Below the pieces are notes generated by a model. The model was not told the origin of the DNA, made no database searches, and worked only from the letters and a program-made list of their open reading frames with translations. From positions 1,018,816 through 1,082,815 of the forward strand of contig OZ240239.1 of the NCBI GenBank assembly GCA_965198095.1: 64,000 bases of DNA. The letters run 5' to 3'. This DNA is from Candidatus Latescibacterota bacterium. GTDB lineage: Bacteria; Latescibacterota; UBA2968; GCA-2709665. Shown here in pieces: positions 9,540 through 61,536 of this stretch; position 1 is the first letter of the stretch, and every line of letters starts with the position of its first letter. The position numbers were made by a program, and so were the translations under genes.

Positions 9540-10334
9540 ATGGCACGCATGGCTGTCATCGTTCTGATTCTGGGGGTATGTCTGCCGGAGGCACTCCCGG
9601 CAGGGGTGGTCCTGAAAGCGGGTGAGATCGACAGCGGCAAGGTTCGCGTGGGCGTCTTTGCGGAGGTTGTCTACGGGAAGGGGAAGCGGGATCCGGTCTC
9701 GGGGAAGTGGGAGAAGCTGGTCACGGCAAGAGGATATATCAAGGCCGTGGACGCGGAGGGCTTGACCCTTGGAGGACGTTTTCGGAAGAAGCGAATTGCA
9801 TTTGCGCGTATTCAAACGCTGCTTCTTGCGAAGTCCAGCCGCGAGATGGCCCGGCTCAGAAAGACGACAGATAAGGAGTTGCCTTTTGCGAGCACGGACG
9901 CCGAGAGCTGGTGGTCGGAAGGTCAGTTCATTCGCATCCATCCCCGAGGTATGGAGAAAGGGATCGTCGCCCGGGTTCACCGGGCGACAAGGGACACCCT
10001 GTTCTTCTATAAGAAGCGTATGAGTATCCTGAGACGAGAGAAACGACCCGAGGCCATCGCGCTCACGGATATTTCCAGGCTCGAAGTCTACAAATACCGC
10101 GAGTCCTACGCCAAGGAGGGCGCCATCGTCGGTGCTGCAGCAGGGATCGCAGCGGTACTGGTCGGCCACCAAGAGGCCGTAGTGCCTCACCCGATCCTAC
10201 TTCTCATGCCACCGATTATGGGTCTTATGGGCGGTGCCCTCGCCGGCTCGATGCTCGGTCACGATGTCTGGCAGGTCGTCGATCTGTCGCCATCCACCGT
10301 TGAGCGAAGACGCCGACTGTCGTTCCGATTTTGA
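9540..10334 (+). CDS. Hypothetical exported/membrane-anchored protein
   Basis: Signal peptide MARMAVIVLILGVCLPEALPAGVV and a C-terminal Gly/Ala-rich hydrophobic segment. No recognisable domain. The large antisense ORF 8358-10190 is rejected. Confidence 0.45.
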   Translation: MARMAVIVLILGVCLPEALPAGVVLKAGEIDSGKVRVGVFAEVVYGKGKRDPVSGKWEKLVTARGYIKAVDAEGLTLGGRFRKKRIAFARIQTLLLAKSSREMARLRKTTDKELPFASTDAESWWSEGQFIRIHPRGMEKGIVARVHRATRDTLFFYKKRMSILRREKRPEAIALTDISRLEVYKYRESYAKEGAIVGAAAGIAAVLVGHQEAVVPHPILLLMPPIMGLMGGALAGSMLGHDVWQVVDLSPSTVERRRRLSFRF

Positions 10335-10433
10335 GTGCGTCAGCGCCAATGGTATCTGCGCGCCTACGTTCCCGGCATCTGCCGGCCTCCCACACCTCTG
10401 ATCGGAACGTTGAGACCAGGAAAGGAAGGCATC

Positions 10434-13400
10434 GTGCGACCCTTCGCTATTTTTATTCTGCTGGCGTTCGTGGGTCAGGCATCTGCCGACCCGAATGGCG
10501 AGACGGGTGGGAGCGCGTCGACAGCGGTGATCTCCTCGACCCGCTTTCCGGGGGATTTCGATTGGGACTTCGATGTCGACTTTGCCGATTTTCTGGCCTT
10601 TGTCTCGGTCTTTGGCAAGACGTCTGCAGACGCCGGTTACAATCCCCGTATGGATATGGACGGAAGCGGCGCCATTGATTTTGCCGATTTTGTGACGTTT
10701 GCCGGCGTTTTTGGTCGCACATACACACGGCCGCCGTGGGCGGCGGACCGTGATGCATTGATCGCTTTGTACCATGCGACCGACGGGGATAGCTGGACGG
10801 ACAGGACAAACTGGCTGACCGACACTGATCTTTGGACCTGGTATGGCGTCAGGGTTTCAGACGGTCGGGTCACGCGCTTACAGCTTGATGAGAATAATCT
10901 GAGTGGGTCGATCCCGTCCGAATTGAGCGATCTGTCCAACCTTAGAGGTCTGTGGCTTTACGACAACGCGTTGAGTGGTCCGATCCCGTCCGAATTGAGC
11001 AACCTGTCCAACCTTAGAGGTCTGTCGCTTGGCAACAATGCGTTGAGTGGATCGATCCCGTCCGAACTGGGCAATCTGTCCAACCTTACGAGTCTGTGGC
11101 TTTACGGCAACGCGTTGAGTGGGTCGATCCCGTCCGAACTGGGCAACCTGTCCAACCTTAGGAGTCTACTTCTTAGCGGCAACGAGTTAAGTGGGTCGAT
11201 TCCCTCCGAATTGGGCAACCTGTCCAACCTTACGAGTCTGTCGCTTGGCGCCAACGCGTTGAGTGGTCCGATCCCGTCCGAATTGGGCAACCTGTCCAAC
11301 CTTTTGGATCTGTCGCTTTCCAACAACACATTGAGTGGGTCGATCCCGTCCGAGTTGGGCAACCTGTCCAACCTTGGGAGTCTGTGGCTTCACGTCAATG
11401 CGTTGAGTGGTCCGATCCCCACCGAGTTGGGCAACCTGTCCAACCTTGCGCAGTTGCTTCTTAACGATAATACCTCCTTGACGGGCACACTTCCACAGAG
11501 CCTGACGCGTCTGACAAATCTGAAGACCTTTCATTTTCACAACACGGGGCTCTGTGTGCCGCTCGATGATGCGTTTCAGACGTGGTTAAAGGGTATGGAA
11601 GACGCCAGGGGCTCGACTTGCCCCGGTGGAGGCACATTGTCCACCGACCGCGATGCGTTGGTGGCGCTATACCATGCGACCGACGGGGATAGCTGGACGG
11701 ACAAGACAAATTGGCTGACCGACGCCGATCTTTCGACCTGGCATGGCGTTACGGTTTCAGACGGTCGGGTTACCCGCGTGCAGCTTGATGGGAATAATCT
11801 GAGTGGCACGACTCCTGCGGCGTTGGGCAACCTGTCCAACCTTACGGATCTGCTCCTTAACAATAATACGTCCTTGACAGGTACACTTCCACAGCGCCTG
11901 ACGCGTCTGACAAATCTGAAGCGCCTCTATTTTCACAACACGGGGATTTGTGCGCGGCTTGAAGGCGCGTTTCAGACGTGGTTTCAGGGCATTGAAGACG
12001 CCAGAGGCTCGACTTGCCCTGATCGCGATGCGCTGGTGGCGCTCTACCATGCGACCGACGGCGATAGCTGGACGCACAAGACAAACTGGCTGACCGACAC
12101 CGATCTTTCGACTTGGCATCGCGTCACGGTTTCTGACGGTCGGGTCACACAATTGCTGCTTTACCGGAATAATCTGCGTGGTTCGATTCCGTCCGAACTG
12201 GGCAATTTGTCCAGCCTTACGGACTTGCTTCTTGACGGCAACGCGTTGAGTGGTTCGATTTCGTCCGAACTGGGCAACCTGTCCAGACTTGAGGCCCTGT
12301 GGCTTTCCGACAACGCGTTGAGTGGTCCGATTTCGTCCGAACTGGGCAACCTGTCCAGCCTCCGGGAACTGCGGCTTTCCGGCAACGCGTTGAGTGGTTC
12401 GATTCCGTCTGAACTGGGCAACCTATCCAACCTTCGGAGTCTGAGTCTCGCCGGCAACGCGTTGAATGGTTCGATTCCGTCTGAACTGGGCAACCTGTCC
12501 AACCTTGCGTTTCTGCATCTTCAAGGCAACGCGTTGAGTGGTTCGATTCCGTCTGAACTGGGCAACCTGTCCAACCTTGTGTTTCTGCATCTTCACGGCA
12601 ACGCGTTGAGTGGTTCGATTCCGTCCGAACTGGGCAACCTGCCCAGCCTTAATAGTCTGCTTCTTAACGATAATTTGCACTTGACGGGCACACTTCCACA
12701 CAGTCTGACGCGTCTGACAAATCTGAGGTACTTTCGTTTTCAAAACACGGGGCTTTGTGCGCCGCTCGATCGTGCGTTTCAGACGTGGCTTCATGGCATA
12801 GAAAACACCAATGGCTCAAATTGCTCTGGTGAAGGCACATTGTCCACCGACCGCGATGCGTTGGTCGCGCTGTACAATTCGACCGACGGGGATAGCTGGA
12901 CGGACAGGGCCAACTGGCTGACCGACACCGATCTTTCGACTTGGCGTGGCGTCACGGTTTCCAACGGTCGGGTTACGCGCTTAGGGCTTGATGAGAACAA
13001 TCTGAGTGGTTCGATCCCTCCGGCATTGGGCAACCTCTCCAACCTTGAGGCCCTGCAGCTTGTCGGCAATGCGTTGAGTGGTCCGATCCTGTCCGAACTG
13101 GGTAACCTGTCCATCCTCGAGACCCTGGTGCTTTCCCGAAATGCGTTGAGTGGTCCGATCCCTTCCGAACTGGGCAACCTGTCCTTCCTTAGGTTTCTGC
13201 TTCTTTCGGGCAATGCGTTGAGTGGTCCGATCCCCTCCGAGTTGGGCAACCTGTCCATCCTTAGGATTCTGGAGCTCTCCGCCAACGCGTTGAGTGGTCC
13301 GATCCCCTCTGAACTGGGCAACCTGTCCAACCTTGGGGATCTGTTTCTTGACCACAACGCGTTGAGTGGTCCGATCCCTCCGGCATTGGGCAACCTGTCC

Positions 13401-13667
13401 AACCTCCAACTCCTGTGGCTTGGCAATAATGCGTTGAGTGGTTCGATCCCGTCCGAATTGGGCAACCTGTCCAACCTTGTGCACCTGTTTCTTAACGATA
13501 ATTCGTCCTTGACGGGCCCACTTCCACAGAGCCTGACGGGGCTTAAAAAGCTACAGCACTTTCATTTTCATAACACGGGGCTTTGCGCGCCGCTCGATGG
13601 CGCATTTCAGACGTGGCTTCAGGGCATTGGAGACGCCAATGGCTCAAACTGCGCTTCCTCCGACTGA
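10434..13667 (+). CDS. Large secreted leucine-rich-repeat protein: N-terminal dockerin-like pair followed by four tandem plant-type LRR modules
   Basis: GTG start after GAAAGGAAGG. Signal peptide VRPFAIFILLAFVGQASA. DFDWDFDVDFADFLAFVSVFG and DMDGSGAIDFADFVTFAGVFG are dockerin-like. Each of the four modules starts DRDALVALYHATDGDSWTDKTNWLTD.DLSTWHGVTVSDGRVT.L (an LRRNT-like cap). The cap is followed by 24-residue repeats L.GNNLSGSIPSELGNLSNL and ends LTGTLPQSLTRLTNLK.FHFHNTGLC.PLD.AFQTWL.G.EDA.GS.C. Confidence 0.85.
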   Translation: MRPFAIFILLAFVGQASADPNGETGGSASTAVISSTRFPGDFDWDFDVDFADFLAFVSVFGKTSADAGYNPRMDMDGSGAIDFADFVTFAGVFGRTYTRPPWAADRDALIALYHATDGDSWTDRTNWLTDTDLWTWYGVRVSDGRVTRLQLDENNLSGSIPSELSDLSNLRGLWLYDNALSGPIPSELSNLSNLRGLSLGNNALSGSIPSELGNLSNLTSLWLYGNALSGSIPSELGNLSNLRSLLLSGNELSGSIPSELGNLSNLTSLSLGANALSGPIPSELGNLSNLLDLSLSNNTLSGSIPSELGNLSNLGSLWLHVNALSGPIPTELGNLSNLAQLLLNDNTSLTGTLPQSLTRLTNLKTFHFHNTGLCVPLDDAFQTWLKGMEDARGSTCPGGGTLSTDRDALVALYHATDGDSWTDKTNWLTDADLSTWHGVTVSDGRVTRVQLDGNNLSGTTPAALGNLSNLTDLLLNNNTSLTGTLPQRLTRLTNLKRLYFHNTGICARLEGAFQTWFQGIEDARGSTCPDRDALVALYHATDGDSWTHKTNWLTDTDLSTWHRVTVSDGRVTQLLLYRNNLRGSIPSELGNLSSLTDLLLDGNALSGSISSELGNLSRLEALWLSDNALSGPISSELGNLSSLRELRLSGNALSGSIPSELGNLSNLRSLSLAGNALNGSIPSELGNLSNLAFLHLQGNALSGSIPSELGNLSNLVFLHLHGNALSGSIPSELGNLPSLNSLLLNDNLHLTGTLPHSLTRLTNLRYFRFQNTGLCAPLDRAFQTWLHGIENTNGSNCSGEGTLSTDRDALVALYNSTDGDSWTDRANWLTDTDLSTWRGVTVSNGRVTRLGLDENNLSGSIPPALGNLSNLEALQLVGNALSGPILSELGNLSILETLVLSRNALSGPIPSELGNLSFLRFLLLSGNALSGPIPSELGNLSILRILELSANALSGPIPSELGNLSNLGDLFLDHNALSGPIPPALGNLSNLQLLWLGNNALSGSIPSELGNLSNLVHLFLNDNSSLTGPLPQSLTGLKKLQHFHFHNTGLCAPLDGAFQTWLQGIGDANGSNCASSD
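10745..13660 (+). repeat. Intragenic tandem repeats: 72-bp LRR units nested in four ~0.4-0.9 kb module duplications
   Basis: Near-identical DNA blocks (gggcaacctgtccaacctt...ggcaacgcgttgagtggttcgatcccgtccgaactg) recur dozens of times. Module starts are near 10745, 11646, 12019 and 12853. Confidence 0.8.
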
Positions 13668-29022: not shown

Positions 29023-29730
29023 TCATTCATAAAAAAGGTTAGGAAAGTCACTCGTACTCACCTTTTCTTGCCGCCCAAGAAAAGGTGACAAAAGAAGGGC
29101 GCCTGCCTGCCGCGCCCAACGCGGCGCAGGCAGGCCCCTCAAACGCCGGGGAGGCTCGGGCCGTGGCGACTCAGCCTCACTGGAAACGACCGGCGCCGCG
29201 AAAGGAATGAACTCCTCCCCCCGCCTGATGCCCACTGCGGGACCCGCCCCCACACCGCGAATTTCCATTCGCCCCCACATCCGCCCCCGCACCTGACCCC
29301 GTCCCACAGAGGGCCCCCTAACCCCTGGGGAGGAGAAACGCGGAAGCAGTTGGAGAGCCACAACGCCACGGCCGCGATGACATCTGGCCCGAATCACTCC
29401 TGAAATCTGCAAAATCTGCGTAAATACCGGGCCTTCCCGCGCCCTTCGATACACCCGAGAGACCGTTCGCCTATGATGAGCTGAGCATCTCGCTGATTGG
29501 GCACTCAGGGACACGGGGGCTTCTCTACTTGCCGCAACTCCTGCGACTCGCTCTTCGAAACCGGCCCCGTTCGTGTCGAGTGCCCGCCTGGGGGCAGGAG
29601 GGTGTCAACGATATAGTTAGGAAAGTCACTCATACTCACCTTTTCTTTGCTCGCTAAGGAGAGCACGATACGGCTGACACGATACACCCCTGTCATACGC
29701 GGAAATGATGTCAACGATTTACCGCTCCCG
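29023..29730. repeat. Mosaic intergenic repeat, copy A (BIME-like; sub-motifs X, Y, T plus a 35-bp direct repeat)
   Basis: Segment X (29130-29440) and segment Y (29441-29625) recur at 61141-61440 and 60990-61140. Y also recurs at 55424-55600. The tail T (29661-29730) recurs inverted at 60770-60836. ggttaggaaagtcactc.tactcaccttttctt occurs at both 29036 and 29626. Confidence 0.7.
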
Positions 29731-29858
29731 GTCATATCTCGCGATTCGCGTCGCTCGCAGACATGGGCGGGTGAACTTCCGTGATCTTTCGGCGTTTGCT
29801 CAGAGCTTCGGGAACCACGTGATTCGGTAACGCCAGACGTTGAGAAATGTAATCGGCC

Positions 29859-39396: not shown

Positions 39397-40485
39397 CTAC
39401 GGCGGACTCCAGACCTCTTTCAAGAGCCGGATCCAGTTTCCGGAGAGGATGTTTCGGACATCTTCGTCGGCGTATCCCCTGCGTTCGAAGATCGCTCTGA
39501 ACTTTTGGAGGTCTTGACTCGTGTTGAAGTCGCGCGGGGCCTGTTCGGTGCCGAAACCGGCGTCCACGTCGGTGCCGAGTCCGGCGTGGCGGGCGTTGCC
39601 CGCGACCTCGCAGACGTGGTCGATGTGATCGGCAACCGTCTCGAGGGTCGCTCTGGTTGTTTGTTTATACGGTGCGGTCGTGTGTTGCCACTCCGTGTCC
39701 AACATCCAGGCATCGAATGCGGAACCGATCACGCCCCCTCTTTCGATCACGGCCCTCAGCATGTCGTCGCTGAGCTGGCGCTGGTCGGGCACGAGGGCGC
39801 GGCAGTTGCAGTGGGAGGCGACCACGGGTCCGTCATAGACGTCGAGGAGCTCCCAGAAAGATTGGTCGGTCAGGTGGGTGAGATCGACGATGATGCCGAG
39901 TTCGCTGAAGGCGTCCAGGAGCGGCTTGGCGGGCGGGAGCAGGCCCCCCTCCGTGCCGCTGCCGTGGGCATAGCTGGTGACGCCGTAGTGAGAGAGGCTG
40001 GCGATGCGGAGTCCCGTGTCGTACCACTCCCGGACGTGATCGGGATCCAGGATCGGGTCGCATCCTTCGAGCGCGAGGACGAGGCCGATCGGCGTATCGG
40101 GCGCGGGGGCCTCCCAGCCGGCGACGACGTCATCCAGGTCCTGCGCGGACCGGACGATTCGGATCACGCCTTCTCTTTCCATGGCGTGGTAGTAGGCGGC
40201 GTGGCCGTAGGCGATGCCGTAACACTGCGCCTGGGTGTAGCACCCGATTCGGGTCCAGTTGTCTTTCGGGGCCAACCGGGCGGTCGCGGTCGCGATGACG
40301 AGCCCGACGTGGCCCTTGTGGAGCTCGTGGAATGTGGTCGTGCTGCTCCCGTAGGTCTCCATGACCTTCGGCGTGTCGTGGGTGCGCACGGTTGTCGCCG
40401 GCTGGGTGAGGTCGCGGTTGGCGTGCAGCGCGGTGAAGGCGAGGTCGAGATGACCGTCGGCGATGAGGATGGGGTTTTCAGTCAA
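39397..40485 (-). CDS. Membrane (renal-type) dipeptidase, peptidase family M19 - paralog 1
   Basis: ADGHLDLAF, a DLTHL-type metal site, ASHCNCRAL and GTDVDAGFG. ~75% identical to paralog 2. Confidence 0.85.
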   Translation of the reverse strand: MTENPILIADGHLDLAFTALHANRDLTQPATTVRTHDTPKVMETYGSSTTTFHELHKGHVGLVIATATARLAPKDNWTRIGCYTQAQCYGIAYGHAAYYHAMEREGVIRIVRSAQDLDDVVAGWEAPAPDTPIGLVLALEGCDPILDPDHVREWYDTGLRIASLSHYGVTSYAHGSGTEGGLLPPAKPLLDAFSELGIIVDLTHLTDQSFWELLDVYDGPVVASHCNCRALVPDQRQLSDDMLRAVIERGGVIGSAFDAWMLDTEWQHTTAPYKQTTRATLETVADHIDHVCEVAGNARHAGLGTDVDAGFGTEQAPRDFNTSQDLQKFRAIFERRGYADEDVRNILSGNWIRLLKEVWSPP

Positions 40486-40568: not shown

Positions 40569-41669
40569 CTACGTGCTGCCTTCCTTCTCGCTCCAGGCGG
40601 CCTTCAAGAGCCGGATCCAGTTCCCCGACAGGATGTTCCCGACTTCTTCGTGCGAGTAGCCTCTGCGCGCGAAGATTTCCGCGAATTTCCGGAGATCCGC
40701 GATCGTGTTGAGGTCGCGCGGGGACTGCTCCGTGCCGTAGCCGCCGTCCAGGTCGGTTCCGATGGCGGCGTGGCGCGCGTTGCCGGCGAGGTCGCAGACG
40801 TGGTCGACGTGATCGGCGACCGTCTGGAGGGTCGCGTTCGTGATCTGTTCATAAGCCGGTCGCTCGTGGCCCCACTCCGGGTCCAGCATCCAGACGTCGA
40901 ACGCGGCACCGATCACGCCGCCCCGTTCGATGATCGACTTGATCATGTCGTCGCTGAGCTGGCGCTGGTTGGGGACGAGGGCGCGGCAGTTGCTGTGGGA
41001 GGCGAGCACGGGGCCGTCGTAGACGTCCAGGAGCTCCCAGTGAGACGGGTCGCTGAGGTGGGTGAGGTCGACGATGATGCCGGCCTCCCGGAAGGCGTCC
41101 AGGAGGGGCCTGGCCGTGGGCAGCAGGCCGCCCTCCGTACCGGTGCCGTGGGCGTAGCGGCTCACGCCGTAGTGTGTCAGGCCGGCCACGCGCACGCCCA
41201 GGTCGTACCACTCCCGAACCTGTTCGGGATCCCGAATGCCGTCGCAGCCTTCAAAGGCCAGCACCAGGCCGATCGGGGTGTCCGGGGCCGGATCTTCCCA
41301 GCTCGCGACGACCCGATCCAGGTCCTGAGCCGAGCGGACGATCCGGATCACGCCTTCCCGCTCCATCGCTTGATAGTAGGCGATGTGGCCCCTGACGACG
41401 CCGTAGCACTGGGTCTGGTCGTACATGCCGAGCCCGGTCCAGTTGTCCTTGGGCCCGACCTTGGCTGTCGCGGTCCCGAAGACGAGCCCGACGTGTCCCT
41501 TTCTGAGCTCGTGGAAACTGACCGTGCAGCTTCCGAAGGTCCGCATCACCGCCGGCGCATCGTGCGTGCGGATCGTGGCCGCCGGAACCGTGAGGTCGCG
41601 GTTGACCTGAAGGGCGCTGAAGGCGAGGTCGAGATGGCTGTCGGCGATCAGCGCGGGTCTGTCAGGCAT
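40569..41669 (-). CDS. Membrane dipeptidase M19 - paralog 2
   Basis: Colinear with paralog 1 (IADSHLDLAF...ASHSNCRAL...GTDLDGGYG). The start codon lies ~20 bp from tandem-repeat block 1. Confidence 0.85.
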   Translation of the reverse strand: MPDRPALIADSHLDLAFSALQVNRDLTVPAATIRTHDAPAVMRTFGSCTVSFHELRKGHVGLVFGTATAKVGPKDNWTGLGMYDQTQCYGVVRGHIAYYQAMEREGVIRIVRSAQDLDRVVASWEDPAPDTPIGLVLAFEGCDGIRDPEQVREWYDLGVRVAGLTHYGVSRYAHGTGTEGGLLPTARPLLDAFREAGIIVDLTHLSDPSHWELLDVYDGPVLASHSNCRALVPNQRQLSDDMIKSIIERGGVIGAAFDVWMLDPEWGHERPAYEQITNATLQTVADHVDHVCDLAGNARHAAIGTDLDGGYGTEQSPRDLNTIADLRKFAEIFARRGYSHEEVGNILSGNWIRLLKAAWSEKEGST

Positions 41670-41689
41670 AAGACCCTCGTTTCAAGAAA

Positions 41690-42500
41690 GGTGTAGGAGC
41701 CAACTCCGTTGGCGAAGCAAAAAGATTGCGGATTTGTTTTGCACTCATCCAATGGCCACTCATAGGGTCGGTAGAGGCGCACACCGCGATCAGATGGTTC
41801 GCCGTCGGGAGCCTGTCCTGAGCAAGCGTCAGCGAGTCGAAGGGACGGCTCCTACCGGATTATTGGGCCTATTGGATTCACCGATGTCATAACGTCCCAT
41901 ATCCGGTAGGAGCCAACTCCTGTTGGCGAAGCAAAAGATGGCGACTTGCTTTGCGCCGATCCAATAAGCCAACTCCGTTGGCGAAGCAAAAGATGGCGAC
42001 TTGCTTTGCGCCGATCCAATGGCCACCCATAGGGTCGGTAGAGGCGTACACCGCGATCAGATGGTTCGCCGTCGGGAGCCTGTCCTGAGCAAGCGTCAGC
42101 GAGTCGAAGGGACGGCTCCTACCGGATTATTGGGCCCAATGGATTCACCGATGTCATAACGTCCCATATCCGGTAGGAGCCAACTCCTGTTGGCGAAGCA
42201 AAAGATGGCGACTTGCTTTGCGCCGATCCAATAAGCCAACTCCGTTGGCGAAGCCGAAGATGGCGATTTGTTTTGCACCAGTCCAATGGCCACTCATGGT
42301 CGGTAGAGGCGTACACCGCGATCAGATGGTTCGCCGTCGGGAGCCTGTCCTGAGCAAGCGTCAGCGAGTCGAAGGGACGGCTCCTACCGGATTGTTGGGC
42401 CTAATGGATTCACCGATGTCATAACGTCCCATATCCGGTAGGAGCCAACTCCTGTTGGCGAAGCAATAGATGGCGATTTGTTTTGCGCCGATCCGATGGC
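41690..42500. repeat. Composite tandem repeat block 1 (three units of S ~55 bp plus L ~155 bp)
   Basis: The S unit is gagccaactcc(t)gttggcgaagc.aaagatggcga.ttg.tttgc.c.gatccaat. The L unit is ggccac.catagggtcggtagaggcg.acaccgcgatcagatggttcgccgtcgggagcctgtcctgagcaagcgtcagcgagtcgaagggacggctcctaccggattattgggcc.a.tggattcaccgatgtcataacgtcccatatccggtag. The block fills the whole interval between the paralog-3 stop and the paralog-2 start. Confidence 0.85.
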
Positions 42501-42502
42501 CA

Positions 42503-43627
42503 TCACTGCCACGCCTCCCTGAACAGCCGAACCGTGTTGCCGTGGGCGATCTTCGCGACGTCCTCCTCGCCATATCCCCGTTGACGCAGGATGTCCAGGA
42601 ACTTCTGCAGGTCGGCGATGGTGTCCATGTCGGTGGGCGCGTACTCTCGCCCGAACCCGCCGTCCAGGTCGGACCCGATGGCCACGTGATCGGCGTTTCC
42701 CGCGAGCTGGCAGATGTGATCGACGTGGTCCACGACGGCGTTCATGGGTCGCGTGGAAGCGGGCGGAACGCGGTCCGAGTCGATCCACGCCGGGTTGAGA
42801 AACCTTTCGACGAAGACGACGCCGATCACGCCGCCACGCTCGCAGAGTGTCTTGATCACGTCGTCACTCAAGAGGCGCTGAATCGGAACGAGGGCGCGGC
42901 AGTTGCAGTGGCTGGCGTGGATCGGTCCGTCCCAGCGGTCCAGGATCTGACGGAGGGCCAAGTCGGCGGCGTGGGTGACGTCCAGAACGATTCCGGCGGC
43001 GCGCAGCGCGTCCATCAGCGGAAATGCGGGGGGATAGAGCCCTCCGACGGTGCGCGTTCCGTGGCCGTAGGTGTTGGCCCCGTAGTGGGTGAGGGAGACG
43101 GCGCGGAGCCCGGCTTCCCACCAGTCTTCCACATTTTCCAGACCGAGGATCGGGTCGGCGCTCTCCATCGTGAGGATGAGGCCGATGGGCGTCTCAGGCG
43201 TCGGATGCGCCCACTCCGCGACAGAGGCATCCAGGTCCGCCACCGACTTGATGAACCGGATCTGCCCGTCTCGTTCCAGGGCGCGGTAGTAGGCCAAGTG
43301 GCCCATGGCCCGCGCGTATGCCGCGGCCTGCGTGCGGTCCGTATTGCCCGACGTCGGACCCGGCTCCTGCACCCGCGCCATGATCGTCCCGAGCGCGATG
43401 CCGACGTGTCCCTTCCGCATGTCGGGAAACGAGACCGTGGCGATGCCTTTGCCGACGTCGGCCCACGGATCGTGGCGGACCAGGACGGCTTCCGGGTCGG
43501 CGGTGGGCCCGAGGAGGAAACCGTCTTCCCGCTCGCGAAGGGTATCGACCGACTGGGTGAGATCGCGGCGGTGAAAGAGGGCGTTGTGCGCCAGGTCGAG
43601 GTGGCCGTCTATGATGAGGGTAGACAT
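42503..43627 (-). CDS. Membrane dipeptidase M19 - paralog 3
   Basis: IIDGHLDLAHN...ASHCNCRAL...GSDLDGGFG. More diverged from paralogs 1 and 2, and close to paralog 4. Confidence 0.85.
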   Translation of the reverse strand: MSTLIIDGHLDLAHNALFHRRDLTQSVDTLREREDGFLLGPTADPEAVLVRHDPWADVGKGIATVSFPDMRKGHVGIALGTIMARVQEPGPTSGNTDRTQAAAYARAMGHLAYYRALERDGQIRFIKSVADLDASVAEWAHPTPETPIGLILTMESADPILGLENVEDWWEAGLRAVSLTHYGANTYGHGTRTVGGLYPPAFPLMDALRAAGIVLDVTHAADLALRQILDRWDGPIHASHCNCRALVPIQRLLSDDVIKTLCERGGVIGVVFVERFLNPAWIDSDRVPPASTRPMNAVVDHVDHICQLAGNADHVAIGSDLDGGFGREYAPTDMDTIADLQKFLDILRQRGYGEEDVAKIAHGNTVRLFREAWQ

Positions 43628-43844
43628 AAAGCCGCCGGGAACGGGTACCGGGGACCCAAAACACGGGTACCGGGTACAGAAAGGCCGTTGTTCGTCGCTT
43701 GTCGTTCCGTCGTTCGCAGAAGTTGGATCACGAGACTACACGAAGCGCACGAAAAAATTGACAATGAATGTCGAACCGCGGAATACCGAATGTGGTGACA
43801 GCTGGACCACAGGCCACAGATTCCTTGTATCACAACCCCAACTC

Positions 43845-44875
43845 ACGCCCCATATCCGGTAGGAGCCAACTCCGTTGGCGAAGCCGAAGATGGCCGTATA
43901 TTATGCCGCCTAGCCAATGGCCAACTCCTGTTGGCGAAGCAAGAGATAGCGATTTGTTTTGCGCCAGTCCAATGGCCACTCATAGGGTCAGTAGAGGCGT
44001 ACACCGCGATCAGATGGTTCGCCGTCGGGAGCCTGTCCTGAGCAAGCGTCAGCGAGTCGAAGGGACGGCTCCTACCGGATTATTGGGCCCAATGGATTCA
44101 CCGATGTCATAACGTCCCATATCCGGTAGGAGCCAACTCCGTTGGCGAAGCCGAAGATGGCGATTTGTTTTGCACTCATCCAATGGCCAACTCCGTTGGC
44201 GAAGCCGAAGATGGCCGTATATTATGCCGCCTAGCCAATGGCCACTCATAGGGTCAGCAGAGGCGCACACCGCGATCAGATGGTTCGCCGTCGGGAGCCT
44301 GTCCTGAGCAAGCGTCAGCGAGTCGAAGGGACGGCTCCTACCGGATTGTTGGGCCTAATGGATTCACCGATGTCATAACGTCCCAAATCCGGTAGGAGCC
44401 AACTCCGTTGGCGAAGCCGAAGATGGCCGTATATTATGCCGCCTAGCCAATGGCCAACTCCTGTTGGCGAAGCAAGAGATAGCGATTTGTTTTGCGCCAG
44501 TCCAATGGCCACTCATAGGGTCGGTAGAGGCGCACACCGCGATCAGATGGTTCGCCGTCGGGAGCCTGTCCTGAGCAAGCGTCAGCGAGTCGAAGGGACG
44601 GCTCCTACCGGATTATTGGGCCTAATGGATTCACCGATGTCATAACGTCCCAAATCCGGTAGGAGCCAACTCCGTTGGCGAAGCCGAAGATAGCGATTTG
44701 TTTTGCACTCATCCAATGGCCACTCATAGGGTCGATAGAGGCGTACACCGCGATCAGATGGTTCGCCGTCGGGAGCCTGTCCTGAGCAAGCGTCAGCGAG
44801 TCGAAGGGACGGCTCATACCGGATTGTTGGGCCTATTGGATTCACCGATGCCATCGTGATGCGAGGCAGAAAACC
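43845..44875. repeat. Composite tandem repeat block 2 (four L units interleaved with two S variants)
   Basis: Same S and L families as block 1. One S variant carries the AT-rich insert ccgtatattatgccgcctagcc. The block runs from ~220 bp upstream of paralog 3 to the stop codon of paralog 4. Confidence 0.85.
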
Positions 44876-44884
44876 TCGGATGAA

Positions 44885-46006
44885 TCACTGCCACGCATTC
44901 CTGAACAGGCGCAGCGTGTTGCCGTGGGCGATCTTGGCCACGTCTTCCTCACCGTATCCACGCCGTCTCAGGACGTCCAGGAAGTTCTGCAGGTCGGCGA
45001 TGGTGTCCAGGTCGCAGGGGGACTTCTCGCGTCCGAACCCGCCGTCCAGATCGGACCCGATGGCGACGTGATCGGCATTTCCGGTGAGCTGACAGATGTG
45101 GTCGACGTGCTCGACGATGGCGCTCATCGGTCGGGTGAGGCCGGGCGCGGGTCCGAACATGTGCACATTCGGGTTGACGAACGTTTCGGCGAAGACCATG
45201 CCGATCACGGCGTCGCGCTCGCAGAGCGCCTTGATCATTTCATCCGTCAACAGCCGCTGGACCGGGACGAGGGCGCGGCAGTTGCAGTGGCTGGCGTGGA
45301 CCGGTCCGTCCCAGTATTCCAGCAGCTGCCAGAAGACGAGGTCGGAGGCGTGGGTCACGTCCAGCAGGACGCCCGCGTCGCGCAGGGCGTCCAGGAGCGG
45401 GTATGCGGGGGTATAGAGTCCGCCTTCGGTGCCCGTGCCGTGGCCGTAGGTGTTGGCCCCGAAATGGGTGAGCGAGACGGATCGGAGCCCGGCTTTCCAC
45501 CAGTCTTCCACATTTTCCGGCCCGAGGATCGGGTCGGCCCCTTCCATGGTGAGGATCAGGCCGACCGGCGTCTCAGGCGTCGGATGCTCCCACTCGGCAA
45601 CAGAGGCATCGAGATCTTCCGCGGATTTGATGAACCGGACTTCGCCCTCCCGCTCCAGGGCCTGGTAGTAGGCCAGATGGGAAATCCCCTGCGCGTGGGC
45701 GACGGCCTGTGTTCGCACGGAGTTGTGGCTGTCCGGACCGGGCAGCTGGATGCGGGACATGATCGTAATCAGCCCGATGCCGACGTGCCCCCTTCGCATG
45801 TCGGGGAGAGAGACCGTGGGAACGCCGTGCTCCTTGTCTTTCCAAGCGTCTTCCTTGACGAGGACCGCTTCCGGATCGGCGGAGGGGCCGCGCAGGAGGA
45901 CGTCTTCCCGTTCGCGGAGGACCCTTGCAGGCTGCCTCTGGTCGCGGCGATTGAAGAGGCCGTTGAAAGCCAGGTCGAGGTGGCCGTCTATGATGAGGGT
46001 AGACAT
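44885..46006 (-). CDS. Membrane dipeptidase M19 - paralog 4
   Basis: IIDGHLDLAFN...ASHCNCRAL...GSDLDGGFG. The long antisense ORFs 39361-46279 (plus strand) are rejected. Confidence 0.85.
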   Translation of the reverse strand: MSTLIIDGHLDLAFNGLFNRRDQRQPARVLREREDVLLRGPSADPEAVLVKEDAWKDKEHGVPTVSLPDMRRGHVGIGLITIMSRIQLPGPDSHNSVRTQAVAHAQGISHLAYYQALEREGEVRFIKSAEDLDASVAEWEHPTPETPVGLILTMEGADPILGPENVEDWWKAGLRSVSLTHFGANTYGHGTGTEGGLYTPAYPLLDALRDAGVLLDVTHASDLVFWQLLEYWDGPVHASHCNCRALVPVQRLLTDEMIKALCERDAVIGMVFAETFVNPNVHMFGPAPGLTRPMSAIVEHVDHICQLTGNADHVAIGSDLDGGFGREKSPCDLDTIADLQNFLDVLRRRGYGEEDVAKIAHGNTLRLFRNAWQ

Positions 46007-46124
46007 AGAGCCGTTGGCAGCGGGTACCGGGGCACCAGAACACGGGTACCGGGTACCGAAAGGCCGTTGTCCGTCGCTTGTCGTTCCGTCATTCGCAAAA
46101 GTTGCATCACAAGCCTATCTCACA

Positions 46125-46435
46125 CCCCGCATCCGGTAGGAGCCAACTCCTGTTGGCGAAGCAATAGGTGGCGACGTGGGGTGCGCCGATCCAATGGCCG
46201 TCTCCCTGTTGGCGAAGCAATAGGTGGCGACGTGGGGTGCGCCGATCCAATGGCCGTCTCCCTGTTGGCGAAGCAATAGGTGGCGACGTGGGGTGCGCCG
46301 ATCCAATGGCCGTCTCCCGACGGCGACGCAATAGGTGGCGACGTGGGGTGCGCCGATCCAATGGCCGTCTCCCGACGGCGACGCAAAAGATGGCGATTTG
46401 TTTTGCACCGATCCGATGGCGCCGGTTTTGGTGGT
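46125..46435. repeat. Tandem repeat block 3 (about five ~58-bp S-like units)
   Basis: ctgttggcgaagcaataggtggcgacgtggggtgcgccgatccaatggccgtctcc repeats three times, followed by two diverged copies. It starts with the same atccggtaggagccaactcc junction as blocks 1 and 2. Confidence 0.8.
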
Positions 46436-46718
46436 ACCGACCCCTCGATACGATCCCCCGCGCCGCGGCCCGCAGCCGCTGCTCGGGATCACCTAGGGAT
46501 GCGGTAGACATGCTCTTCGTGGAGCAGGTTCCCAGCTTCAGGAGGTGCTAAGCTAATACGCCGCATCTGTGATCGCAAGGGCGAAAGAGACCGCTTTTCT
46601 GCCCAAATTTCGTTGACAGGTCTCGCAAAGTCGCTTACTTTTTCGCCGGGGCCGGGGTCAACGTTCCACGAGATCCTGATCTCGGCACTTCTGTATCCAG
46701 TCCAGCGCCTGCGGTTGG

Positions 46719-46795
46719 TCGGGGCGTGGCTCAGTCCGGTAGAGCACCTGCTTTGGGAGCAGGGGGTCGTGGGTTCAAATCCCGCCGCCCCGACC
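46719..46795 (+). tRNA. tRNA-Pro (anticodon TGG), CCA encoded
   Basis: CGGGGCGTGGCTCAGTCCGGTAGAGCACCTGCTTTGGGAGCAGGGGGTCGTGGGTTCAAATCCCGCCGCCCCGACCA. The minus ORF 46489-47166 across it is rejected. Confidence 0.85.
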
Positions 46796-47180
46796 AAAAG
46801 AAACGGCACCCACAAGAACCCTTGACGGTCTTTAGGAACCTGCTTATCGTAATCTCGACACAGATCCGCGCACCGCTCGTTATTCTTCACACGAAAGGGG
46901 GATGCGAAATGAACCTCATTTATCTGATCGCGGCGTCCCCGGGTGGTTTTATGTAGACTCTGATTCACAGGGTCAAACGATTCAGGCTTTGATTCATGCC
47001 AAAGGCAGAGTTGGAGGTCGTCCGAGGGGGCGGCCTCCTTTCTTTTTGCTTCGAGCCAAGGATGCGCAGCATCCCGTCGATTCCGCTCGGGCAGGCGCAA
47101 TGTTCCTTGGGCGGTGGGACCCCGTCCAAATCGCCGGTTTGACCCCAGGTCGGGGCGCCACCGCAAACAAGCAAGAGGGA

Positions 47181-50811: not shown

Positions 50812-51085
50812 AGTGCGTTCTCCAGAAAGGTCGATGGTCATCAGTGAAGCGAACATCGTGGGCCACACCGGAGGACCACCGAAATACGATTCTCCATTGA
50901 TCGTTGACTCGGATGCCGTGGAACCCACGTAAATCTCCCCGCAGTGCCTGCAGGCGATTGCCGGGAGGCGATCTTAGGCTGAATCATTCATGAATCGTCA
51001 CGGTTAGCTGCTTGATTCGCGAGTCAATCAACTCCACCCCGGCACAGTGGCTTGTCGAGCGGTTGAGGAAGGGTGTGTGAAGGTG

Positions 51086-51107
51086 GGGCAGACATTCCTG
51101 TCTGCCC
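51086..51107. repeat. REP-like palindrome downstream of the RAYT gene
   Basis: GGGCAGACA-ttcc-TGTCTGCCC (9-bp perfect stem), extendable to GTGAAGG..CCTTCAC. Confidence 0.6.
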
Positions 51108-51108
51108 T

Positions 51109-51799
51109 TCACATTGTCCTTTTCCCGGAATCCGGAATGCAGACAGAAGAAAGGCGTGCGCCGCCTTTATAGAGCCAATACGCGTCGTTGCGCAGTCCGT
51201 CTTTTGTGGGGTTTTCCGTGATGTAGCGGATGAAGCGCCAATACTGCTTTTCGCTACGCACGATGTGATCATAGGATTCGTCAAGCCAGAACGTCCCGGT
51301 GACGCCTGTGAGTTTGTTGATTTCTCGGGCAAAGGCGCCTTTTATGCCCTGCAGAATCCGCGAAAGGTTGTGGCCTCCCAGGGGTTCCATGAGGAGGTGA
51401 ACATGCGTGGGCATGATGACGGCTGCGTGAAGCCGGTGTCTTTCGCCGTCGAAACGCAAAAGACAGTTCTTGACCGCTTCACGGGCATCTATGTGCGCCA
51501 GGGCACGGGAACCAGAGCCGGCATTGAGCCAGGATTCGATCTTTTCATCGAAACGTCGGTTGTACTCTTTCCACTCGGCGTCTGTCCACGGTTCGGGGTG
51601 GCGCTTGTGCCACAGCTTACGCGCTTCCTGGAAGGTCCCGGGGGATCGCGTCAGCGAGGCGAAAGGTGATCCAATAGATCGCACCGTCTTTATTCCAGTG
51701 GGGGAGACGGCGGCGAGTCGTAGCGTGCCCGGACACAGGATGCAAAGGTTCCGGTTTGAGGGTGATGAGCAGACAGGAATGTCTGCTCCACATTTCCAA
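51109..51799 (-). mobile_element. REP-associated tyrosine transposase (RAYT, IS200/IS605-like TnpA_REP), interrupted by a frameshift
   Basis: The N-fragment (51617-51799) reads RRRLPHWNKDGAIYWITFRLADAIP. The C-fragment (51109-51684) has the HuH motif HVHLLMEP and the catalytic Tyr region YWRFIRYITENP. The two frames overlap at the run ccccgggacc. Confidence 0.65.
51767..51788. repeat. REP-like palindrome at the 5' end of the RAYT gene, inverted relative to the downstream copy
   Basis: GAGCAGACA-ggaa-TGTCTGCTC. The loop is the reverse complement of the ttcc loop of the copy at 51086-51107. Confidence 0.6.
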
Positions 51800-55423: not shown

Positions 55424-55600
55424 CTGACAGGCTTTCCCGCGCCCTTCGATACACCCGCGAGACCATTGGGTTATGATCGGCTGAACATCTCGCTGATTGG
55501 GCACTCAGGGACGCGGGGTCTTTGCACTTGTCGCAACTCCTGCGACTCTCTCTTCGAACCCGGACGCCTTCGTGACCGCCGGCGAGGCAGAGCCGGACTC
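55424..55600. repeat. Mosaic repeat copy C (segment Y only, right arm degenerate)
   Basis: gcgcccttcgatacacccgcgagacc...gctgaacatctcgctgattgggcactcagggacgcggggtctttgcacttgtcgcaactcctgcgactctctcttcgaa matches Y of copies A and B. Confidence 0.65.
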
Positions 55601-60713: not shown

Positions 60714-60769
60714 ACGGTCCCTCCGCTCAAGCCGGGCGGCGCTCGGTCGATCTCGTCACTTCATACCGG

Positions 60770-61440
60770 GAGCGGTAAATCGTTGACATCATTTCCGCGT
60801 ATGACAGGGGCGTATCGTGTCAACCGTATCGTGCGCTCCCTGGTCACTCCGGTGTGGCACCGGCAGCTTGCTGCCGGTGGGAAATGACGAGCGAATTTTG
60901 TCATACTTGGAGCAATGAATTTTTCACGGGCGGGCGAGCCGCCCGTGGCACACGCGATTAAGACCTTGTGTATTGTCGATTCGGTGATGATCAGCTGAGC
61001 ATCTCGCTCATCGGGCACTCAGGGACACGGGGCTTCTCCACTTGTCGCAATTCCTGCGACTCTCACTTCTCACTTCAAACCCGGCCCCGTTCGTGTCGAG
61101 TGCCCGAGCCTGGGGGTAGGGTGTCAACGATATCGTCAGGCAGGCCCCTCAAACGCCGGGGGGGCTCGGGCCGTGGCGACTCAGCCTCACTGGAAAGTAT
61201 TGGCGCCGCGAAAGGAATGAACTCCTCCCCCCGCCTTATGCCCGCTGCGGGACCCGCCCCCACGCCGCGAATTTCCATTCGCCCCCACATCCGCCCCCGC
61301 ACCTGACCCCGTCCCACAGAGGGCCCGGACCCCTGGGGAGAAGAAACGCCAAAGCAGCTAGGGAGCCGAAACGCCACGGCCGCGATGACATCTGGCCCGA
61401 ATCACTCGTGAAATCTGAACAATCTGCGTAAATACTGGGC
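60770..61440. repeat. Mosaic repeat copy B (T inverted, then Y, then X)
   Basis: 60770-60836 is the reverse complement of 29661-29730. 60990-61140 matches Y. 61141-61440 matches X, including ggccgtggcgactcagcctcactggaaa...gaatttccattcgcccccacatccgcccccgcacctgaccccgtcccacagagggcc. Confidence 0.7.
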
Positions 61441-61536
61441 TTTCCAGTTTTTTGCACCAGGACAAAGTTTTTTTACTCAAATTGGATCACTGATTGTTCT
61501 TCATAAAATGATGGAAATTTTCAGCAAATATTCAGG

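Follow-up and report, generated by a model that had tools for sequence, protein, structure and literature searches.

Tandem arrays of GTAG-tagged, REP-like palindromes in the spacers of a dipeptidase gene cluster of a Latescibacterota bacterium

Classical repetitive extragenic palindromes (REPs) are present in hundreds of dispersed copies, and GTAG-tagged REPs, together with the REP doublets forming hairpins (REPINs), are seen as non-autonomous miniature elements on which HUH/Y1 transposases act. In GTAG-tagged REPs, a conserved GTAG is followed by a palindrome of 20-50 nt whose stem measures 6-13 bp and whose loop is short (PMC3733652; PMC8266576). A dinucleotide separates the tag from the stem in families GTAG-1/2, complementary stem variants are common, and head-to-head (HH), tail-to-tail (TT) and head-to-tail (HT) dimers occur with spacers of 20-100 nt (PMC3733652). 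The elements are reported to be extragenic, lying between unidirectional genes, and one published exception to their dispersal is GTAG-23 of Thermomicrobium roseum, which is clustered at few loci (PMC3733652). Pseudomonas fluorescens SBW25 has tandem REPIN clusters of more than 700 bp and 12-copy tandem arrays of REPs; some of its clusters lie near genes for REP-associated tyrosine transposases (RAYTs), which are flanked by the same REP type, and most of its large REPIN population lies dispersed, outside these clusters (PMC3116915). Here we describe three repeat arrays in a 64,000-nt stretch of a Candidatus Latescibacterota genome (contig OZ240239.1; hereafter the window), all of them intergenic and placed around four tandem Peptidase_M19 genes. 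We conclude that they are probably clusters of a GTAG-tagged REP family in a tandem arrangement like that of bacterial interspersed mosaic elements (BIMEs) and REPINs, and that this family is putatively an addition to the 24 GTAG families already published.

On this reading the arrays are a known kind of repeat and a putatively new sequence family, with no new system or mechanism. What is unusual is their state, being of kilobase scale, variable between strains, confined as sampled to spacers within a single cluster of paralogous genes, and beside decayed RAYTs that carry a different REP. We found in them a short palindromic stem-loop, a 5' GTAG tag, an extragenic location, HH and TT dimers and tandem clusters, as in REPs, and two inverted REPs that can fold into one long hairpin, as in REPINs; genome-wide dispersal and a RAYT flanked by the same REP were not found in our sample. 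All copies lie in spacers of co-oriented M19 genes, except that those on one unrelated metagenome contig (L018, described below) lie at gene 3' ends and between convergent genes.

One palindromic element in three arrays

The original prediction had dealt with the first array alone and had divided it into two kinds of repeat unit, L and S, names that we retain. Numbering throughout is that of the whole 64-kb window, in which the arrays are placed as follows.

41690-42500, plus strand: array 1, between M19_2 and M19_3; unit order S-L-S-S-L-S-S-L-S; the array ends 2 nt from the M19_3 stop codon
43845-44854, plus strand: array 2, between M19_3 and M19_4; four L and eight S units, the final L being cut off within the 40-nt linker
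46130-46420, plus strand: array 3, upstream of M19_4 and 300 nt from a tRNA-Pro gene; one tagged REP followed by four untagged S units of 55-56 nt

To a window scan for GCCAAC-N3-5-GTTGGC, the arrays contributed all 14 matches, on the plus strand only, against 0.01 expected, which bears out the GCCAAC-N3-4-GTTGGC palindromes described originally. The perfect 14-bp inverted repeat with a 40-nt gap (for example 42114-42127 with 42168-42181) was likewise recovered: of the seven 14-bp arm pairs in the arrays, six are complete and perfect and spaced by 40 nt (or, counted as 15-bp arms, 38 nt apart). The sequence GGCTCCTACCGGAT or its complement had 15 matches at two mismatches or fewer, against 0.53 expected by chance, and all 15 fell inside the three arrays. 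Tandem Repeats Finder detected two periods, one of 55 nt and one of 267 nt. S units are 54-56 nt long and consist of the palindrome, GAAGC or GACGC, a second, poorly conserved hairpin near GATGGCGA and a final ...CCAATG, and the L-specific stretches measure 155-157 nt when the arrays are split at unit boundaries. In a check of coding potential, array 1 had no long open reading frame (ORF) across its span, and its 55-nt period is not divisible by three. An assembly artefact is excluded, since five further, independent assemblies from sister strains show this architecture too.

The division into L and S does not mark separate modules: where the hairpin's 3' arm meets the 5' arm of the S palindrome, the two overlap (GGAGCC/GCCAAC), and both belong to one element, which on the plus strand reads ATCCG-GTAG-GA-GCCAAC-TCC(T)-GTTGGC-GAAGC; ATCCG-GTAG-GA precedes the palindrome at every L-to-S junction. 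On the minus strand we found an inverted partner (iREP), GTAG-GA-GCCGTC-TCCC-GACGGC-GAACC, which in the window genome carries a 33-nt insert in its loop, and the 3' part of the L unit of sister strain L008 reads, on the other strand, ATCCG-GTAG-GA-GCCGTC-TCCC-GACGGC-GAACC. In nine forward palindromes of the window (plus strand), GTAG and GA immediately precede a perfect 6-bp stem whose loop is 3-4 nt long; seven inverted copies bear the same tag on the minus strand.

42173-42194, plus strand: example of a forward REP, with GTAG, GA, stem GCCAAC, loop TCCT and stem GTTGGC
41693, 41906, 42438, 43859, 44126, 44392, 44659 and 46136, plus strand: starts of the other tagged forward REPs
42068-42122, minus strand: example of an iREP in an L unit, GTAG-GA-GCCGTC-(loop with 33-nt insert)-GACGGC
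41801, 42333, 44021, 44287, 44554 and 44765, minus strand: other iREP copies
42079-42111, plus strand: 33-nt block CCTGTCCTGAGCAAGCGTCAGCGAGTCGAAGGG, inserted in the iREP loop
42114-42181: the hairpin of the original prediction, with 14-bp arms (42114-42127 and 42168-42181), a 40-nt linker and heads ATCCG-GTAG-GAGCC
41847, 42379, 44067, 44333 and 44600: further copies of this hairpin
41968-42021, plus strand: example of an untagged S unit, with CCAATR before the palindrome instead of GTAGGA

Since the 3' part of the L unit is the same element inverted, the 14-bp hairpin consists of two inverted ATCCGGTAGGAGCC heads facing each other across the 40-nt linker. It is therefore a TT (GTAG-inside) junction of a REP dimer, in which the S palindrome forms the body of the right-hand REP. 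The HH (GTAG-outside) doublet comprises a forward REP, one or two 55-nt S tails and an iREP, and a constant 40-nt linker joins successive doublets, giving the 14-bp hairpin at six TT junctions. The 267-nt period is thus the HH heterodimer plus the linker. In both the window and L008, the arms of the doublet are complementary across ATCCGGTAGGAGCC and most of the next 17 nt. The S-unit tail GAAGCAAAAGATGGCGACTTGCTTTGCGCC forms a second hairpin that is weaker and poorly conserved. The 33-nt block is present in all seven L units of the window and in none of the L units of L008, L022/L023 or L024, and L025 is mixed.

We counted stem variants in 96 copies from six strains (the window and five sisters). 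AAC/GTT stems account for 65 copies, GTC/GAC stems for 27 and hybrids for four, so that 92 of the 96 stems are fully paired; the S stems of array 3 include the GCCGTC/GACGGC type and the hybrid type GCCGTC/GTTGGC. Both sides had changed in two of the six pairs by a formal pair count, in which 93.6% of cells were paired, compared with 8-55% when the partner was slid, and the covariation score was reached by 4 of 500 shuffles. The longer stem behaves differently: its 14 bp are invariant in all 21 copies from the six strains, and it thus offers no covariation, while the 37-nt loop core varies at five positions. Of the compensatory variation looked for at the outset, therefore, the short palindrome has it (AAC/GTT versus GTC/GAC) and the 14-bp stem does not.

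The 68-nt hairpin, folded as DNA on both strands, had a z-score of about -4.4 relative to shuffles, and the check by RNA folding suggested in the original prediction turned out positive, with z = -4.96 for the whole 270-nt unit on the plus strand versus -1.97 on the minus strand. This strand bias would fit structured RNAs, either antisense or small RNAs from the plus strand or sense intercistronic regulatory structures, with the likeness to REPs being secondary. Pointing the same way, the single hybrid stem retains a G-U pair on the plus strand, and three S units have a sigma-70-like TTGGCG-16/18-TATATT/TATTAT on that strand. The motif, however, fits 9 of 12 positions and occurs in one S subtype only. 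We also found no Rfam match, even at permissive thresholds (tRNAs only at the Rfam 15 gathering score, and nothing relevant up to E = 5 in 41600-46700), and no terminators; the second hairpin of the S units is not conserved across subtypes, and the free variation of unit content among strains is hard to square with a defined RNA gene. We therefore consider an RNA function as the primary identity of the arrays very unlikely. The sigma-70-like -35/-10 matches are in the S subtype with GCCGTATATTATGCC, at 43874-43910, 44195-44231 and 44407-44443, antisense to the M19 genes.

The anatomy agrees closely with the GTAG superfamily (Di Nocera et al. 2013, PMC3733652), with which the arrays share the tag, the dinucleotide, the stem length, the short loop, stem variants, HH and TT dimers and long-loop variants. 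With E. coli BIMEs, in which REPs y, z1 and z2 alternate in orientation with linker motifs and are often in tandem, they share a tagged palindrome with an inverted heterodimer partner, constant linkers, tandem REP-iREP pairs and an extragenic position between genes of the same direction. They differ in having a short, perfect stem (6 bp) without bulges, like the group-3/Pseudomonas type, in the interleaved untagged 55-nt S units, in array lengths of up to 1 kb, in their restriction as sampled to a single gene cluster and in the lack of a cognate RAYT among those found.

Copies elsewhere and the neighbouring transposase

Several observations weigh against assigning the arrays to a REP family. 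The stem covariation reflects a single pair of linked alleles and no series of independent changes, and is for that reason only modest evidence. The tag is not universal, as nine further S-head palindromes (half of them) bear CCAATG where the GTAG tag would be. Beyond the M19 cluster, the array REP had no copies in the 64-kb window, in the flanks of the five sister loci or in L029, a 20.8-kb sequence from another part of a sister genome; this sample, of about 90-100 kb, is compatible with up to about 140 loci per 4.2 Mb. Apart from L018, exact-pattern searches of the JGI metagenomes and 185,579 species genomes returned chance matches only. Finally, the hairpins on either side of the RAYTs of the window, L024, L027, L028 and L029 are GTGG-GCAGACA-TTCC and not the array REP, and no intact cognate RAYT for the array REP was found among the RAYT copies examined (window, sister genome and orthologues).

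In the scan of species genomes, the S-head pattern gave six matches of 20-25 nt, all attributable to chance and mostly in coding sequence. The metagenome scan gave 12 matches, among which L018 alone extends past the pattern, and viral contigs gave no match to the exact pattern. The window organism itself is present in JGI samples as contigs of 1-2 kb that end inside the arrays; the arrays cannot be assembled from short-read metagenomes. In a literature search, the 15-16-nt palindrome GCCAAC-TCC(T)-GTTGGC had no match, and 9-mers from it appeared only in papers that were unrelated, as judged by titles and abstracts.

L018 comes from a different organism, with a GC content of 47% and genes for UvrA, a rhomboid protein, an LPG-synthase-like protein and an amidase. 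Here GGTAGGAGCCAACTCCTGTTGGCGAA...GGAGACGGCTCCTACC stands alone between convergent genes as an inverted doublet of 85 nt, which folds as DNA at -28.3 kcal/mol (z = -8.4). A second, single copy lies 900 nt away at the end of a neighbouring gene, and the doublet adjoins another GTAG-tagged doublet of different sequence. This arrangement is classic REP/REPIN behaviour. The doublets of the window are in tandem at one locus, and the one isolated doublet is that of L018; the palindrome that the original prediction proposed to look for elsewhere is accordingly absent outside the M19 cluster in the 90-100 kb sampled and present, as the same REP, in an unrelated genome. For an array REP that clusters at few loci, T. 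roseum GTAG-23 provides a precedent.

A RAYT gene lies 4.7 kb from array 3.

51083-51791, minus strand: REPtron-like unit, a RAYT gene (51109-51740) between inverted hairpins
51083-51107 and 51768-51791, inverted relative to each other: GTGG-[G/A]GCAGACA-TTCC-TGTCTGC[C/T] hairpins, found by a hairpin search

The gene has matches to Pfam Y1_Tnp, to NCBIfam NF047646 ('REP-associated tyrosine transposase', E 4e-18) and to the TnpArep structure of E. coli (PDB 4ER8), and its homologues are named RayT by JGI. That the genome has RAYT-type transposases counts in favour of the REP assignment. Compared with intact orthologues in L027 and L028, it has an 11-nt frameshifting deletion, and the same deletion is present in L029, which holds a second RAYT copy elsewhere in the sister genome. 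The array hairpin and the RAYT hairpin have in common only a GGTRG-AGC head and a TCC-type loop, and the RAYT of the window is not cognate to the array REP. The genomic context of the RAYT unit differs between L027, L028 and L029, and there are at least two units per genome, behaviour that suits a mobile unit of the IS200 type better than a domesticated RAYT in single copy. Immediately downstream of the intact L028 RAYT we observed a RAYT-less miniature of about 185 nt (10715-10900) that keeps both terminal GCAGACA hairpins and has lost the ORF; it is a derivative of the RAYT unit, resembling a miniature inverted-repeat transposable element (MITE) or a REPIN.

A close parallel for tandem clusters near a RAYT is SBW25, whose REPIN clusters and GI-GIII arrays (Bertels & Rainey 2011) likewise consist of near-identical inverted doublets in tandem, including their flanks, some with a RAYT nearby. 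The arrays of the window differ from them in having no dispersed population in our sample and in that the adjacent RAYT is frameshifted and carries a different REP.

Array turnover in the dipeptidase cluster

The four Peptidase_M19 genes (membrane dipeptidases) are co-oriented, with 46-73% protein identity among the paralogues. M19_1 and M19_2 are separated by 83 nt free of arrays, and the five sister strains have arrays in the identical three spacers.

39397-40485, minus strand: M19_1, Peptidase_M19 (membrane dipeptidase)
40569-41669, minus strand: M19_2, Peptidase_M19
42503-43627, minus strand: M19_3, Peptidase_M19
44885-46006, minus strand: M19_4, Peptidase_M19
Array 1, length across strains: 283-805 bp
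Array 2, length across strains: 238-1010 bp
Array 3, length across strains: 73-280 bp

This length variation is seen although the M19 proteins of the sister strains are at least 98% identical. Unit subtypes are shuffled between strains, chimeric units are present, and within a given genome the 33-nt insert is either fixed or missing. By contrast, the more distant L009, which has the same four paralogues (M19 orthologue 85% identical), has short spacers and no trace of the repeat. Because L009 is free of repeats and the paralogues are only 46-73% identical, the arrays must be much younger than the gene duplications; and because no recent duplication relates the three spacers, the repeat had to spread between them. 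The pattern suggests that the arrays evolve in concert, through unequal recombination or slippage.

Their current behaviour, with strain-variable copy number, homogenisation within genomes and a single locus, is that of a satellite or variable number tandem repeat (VNTR). The arrays could accordingly be a locus-specific tandem satellite that arose from duplicated M19 intergenic sequence and was homogenised by unequal crossing-over or gene conversion without any transposase, the GTAG and the palindromes being incidental or by-products of template switching. That all strains examined have the arrays only in these three neighbouring spacers, with none elsewhere in about 100 kb, argues for such an origin, as do the strong copy-number differences, the variants fixed in each genome, the invariant 14-bp stem and the lack of a cognate RAYT among those found. 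It does not readily account for the tag, stem, loop and inverted-doublet ends recurring in isolation in L018, with its other GC content and other genes, nor for a GTAG-N2-stem layout on both strands with a compensated stem, and the need for spread between spacers that did not come from a recent gene duplication also speaks against it. We judge a purely local satellite origin unlikely and prefer REP clusters that have come to behave as a satellite. The original prediction had likened the architecture to recombination sites or MITE termini more than to a simple satellite: the arrays are indeed structured, recombination-type elements, and it is their present-day behaviour that is satellite-like.

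Strain-variable tandem units are also known from mycobacterial interspersed repetitive units (MIRUs), VNTRs with units of 40-100 bp in operon spacers. MIRUs are not known to be GTAG-tagged hairpins, and they typically contain short ORFs overlapping the flanking stop and start codons. The arrays resemble them as strain-variable intercistronic tandem units and lack their coding arrangement.

Insertion sequences (ISs) are also present at the locus in sister strains. In L008, an IS of the DUF772 family sits at CTAA inside the 40-nt linker, and DUF772-family ISs lie in and beside the arrays in L008 (7496-8830 and 3242-4768) and L022 (1827-6983), with three tandem copies adjoining the M19 cluster in L022. 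The arrays seem to be hot spots of insertion and rearrangement. The presence of these ISs, the unidirectional, cassette-like genes between the arrays and a superficial likeness of GCCAAC/GTTGGC to the attC cores RYYYAAC/GTTRRRY might suggest that the units are integron-type attC sites, or the termini or MITEs of a resident IS, as the original prediction had considered. Both attC sites and the array units are imperfect palindromes downstream of co-oriented genes; those of attC sites measure 57-141 nt and lie between the cores R'' (RYYYAAC) and R' (GTTRRRY). The array sites, however, stand in tandem over as much as 1 kb, not one per cassette, and no RYYYAAC...GTTRRRY pair 45-150 nt apart was present on either strand of 41600-46500. 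No integrase domain was found in any of the ORFs scanned (all but a few). Core sites, an integrase among these ORFs and a layout of one site per cassette are thus all missing, and the attC comparison failed. The comparison with IS termini fared no better: the ends of the L008 DUF772 IS (CAGTCCGTTGAAAAA.../...TTTTTCAACGGGCTG) are unrelated to the array arms, and that IS is merely inserted in the linker. Both identities are extremely improbable.

Other features of the cluster were observed alongside the arrays. A direct repeat, GGGTACCGGG...CACGGGTACCGGGTAC, lies just upstream of two M19 start codons (43640-43680 and 46020-46060) and is kept in the array-free L009 (9950-10000 and 11230-11260); it is a candidate operator or 5'-untranslated-region element of the dipeptidase genes. 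L009 has a different element of about 55 nt, GCGGCGCTGATGAGGWTCCTATCYCCGCGCGCCGTGTATCGAGAGATCGGGACAA, after two M19 stop codons (9745-9800 and 11135-11190, minus strand), with no Rfam match. A tRNA-Pro(TGG) gene lies at 46720-46796, 300 nt past array 3, and a homologous tRNA also adjoins the M19 cluster in L009. The named homologues of GlnRS, M19 and RAYT have 50-73% identity and belong to several phyla: Gemmatimonadota, Chloroflexota, Planctomycetota, Verrucomicrobiota and Kiritimatiellota.

The window contains two further kinds of repeat. An unrelated, dispersed G-rich family occurs in three places, 82-96% identical over 75-311 nt, and the ORFs that overlap it have no Pfam match. At 10900-13500, 72-bp (24-codon) tandem repeats run within an ORF of 1110 aa (10335-13667); they are coding and unrelated to the arrays, and from their sequence are candidate leucine-rich-repeat-like units.

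29127-29437 and 61137-61445: G-rich repeat pair
29430-29575 and 55430-55574: G-rich repeat pair
29473-29635 and 60987-61154: G-rich repeat pair
29658-29732 and, inverted, 60765-60839: G-rich repeat pair

Proposed origin and meaning

If the arrays are REP clusters, their founding copies would have been deposited by a RAYT-type HUH/Y1 transposase acting on the GTAG tag and the hairpin of single-stranded REP DNA. The arrays may then have expanded, contracted and become homogenised by unequal recombination or replication slippage between the 55-nt and the roughly 267-nt units, with homogenisation probably extending between the three neighbouring spacers. Their present effect is likely to be in cis, through stable stem-loops in the intercistronic transcript and the DNA of the M19 cluster; possible roles are protection of mRNA 3' ends, partial termination or processing. 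The arrays may also serve as hot spots for recombination and IS insertion.

A bolder proposal, which we regard as speculative and distinctly unlikely, is that orphan REPIN clusters, beside RAYT copies that are frameshifted as far as seen, have been kept and expanded solely in the spacers of the four-gene dipeptidase cluster, where variable copy number could adjust how stable the intercistronic mRNA is or how much antisense transcription occurs, or promote recombination between paralogues. Under this proposal, the head shared with the unrelated, lower-GC bacterium of L018 would imply movement of REPs between distant lineages without their transposase.

Should the assignment to a GTAG-tagged REP family be right, it would add a REP/BIME-type family for an uncultured soil lineage that now has long-read assemblies. 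The locus would represent an extreme state of REPs and a natural case in which to follow their fate after the loss of a transposase, as well as a case of how repeat arrays break short-read assemblies.

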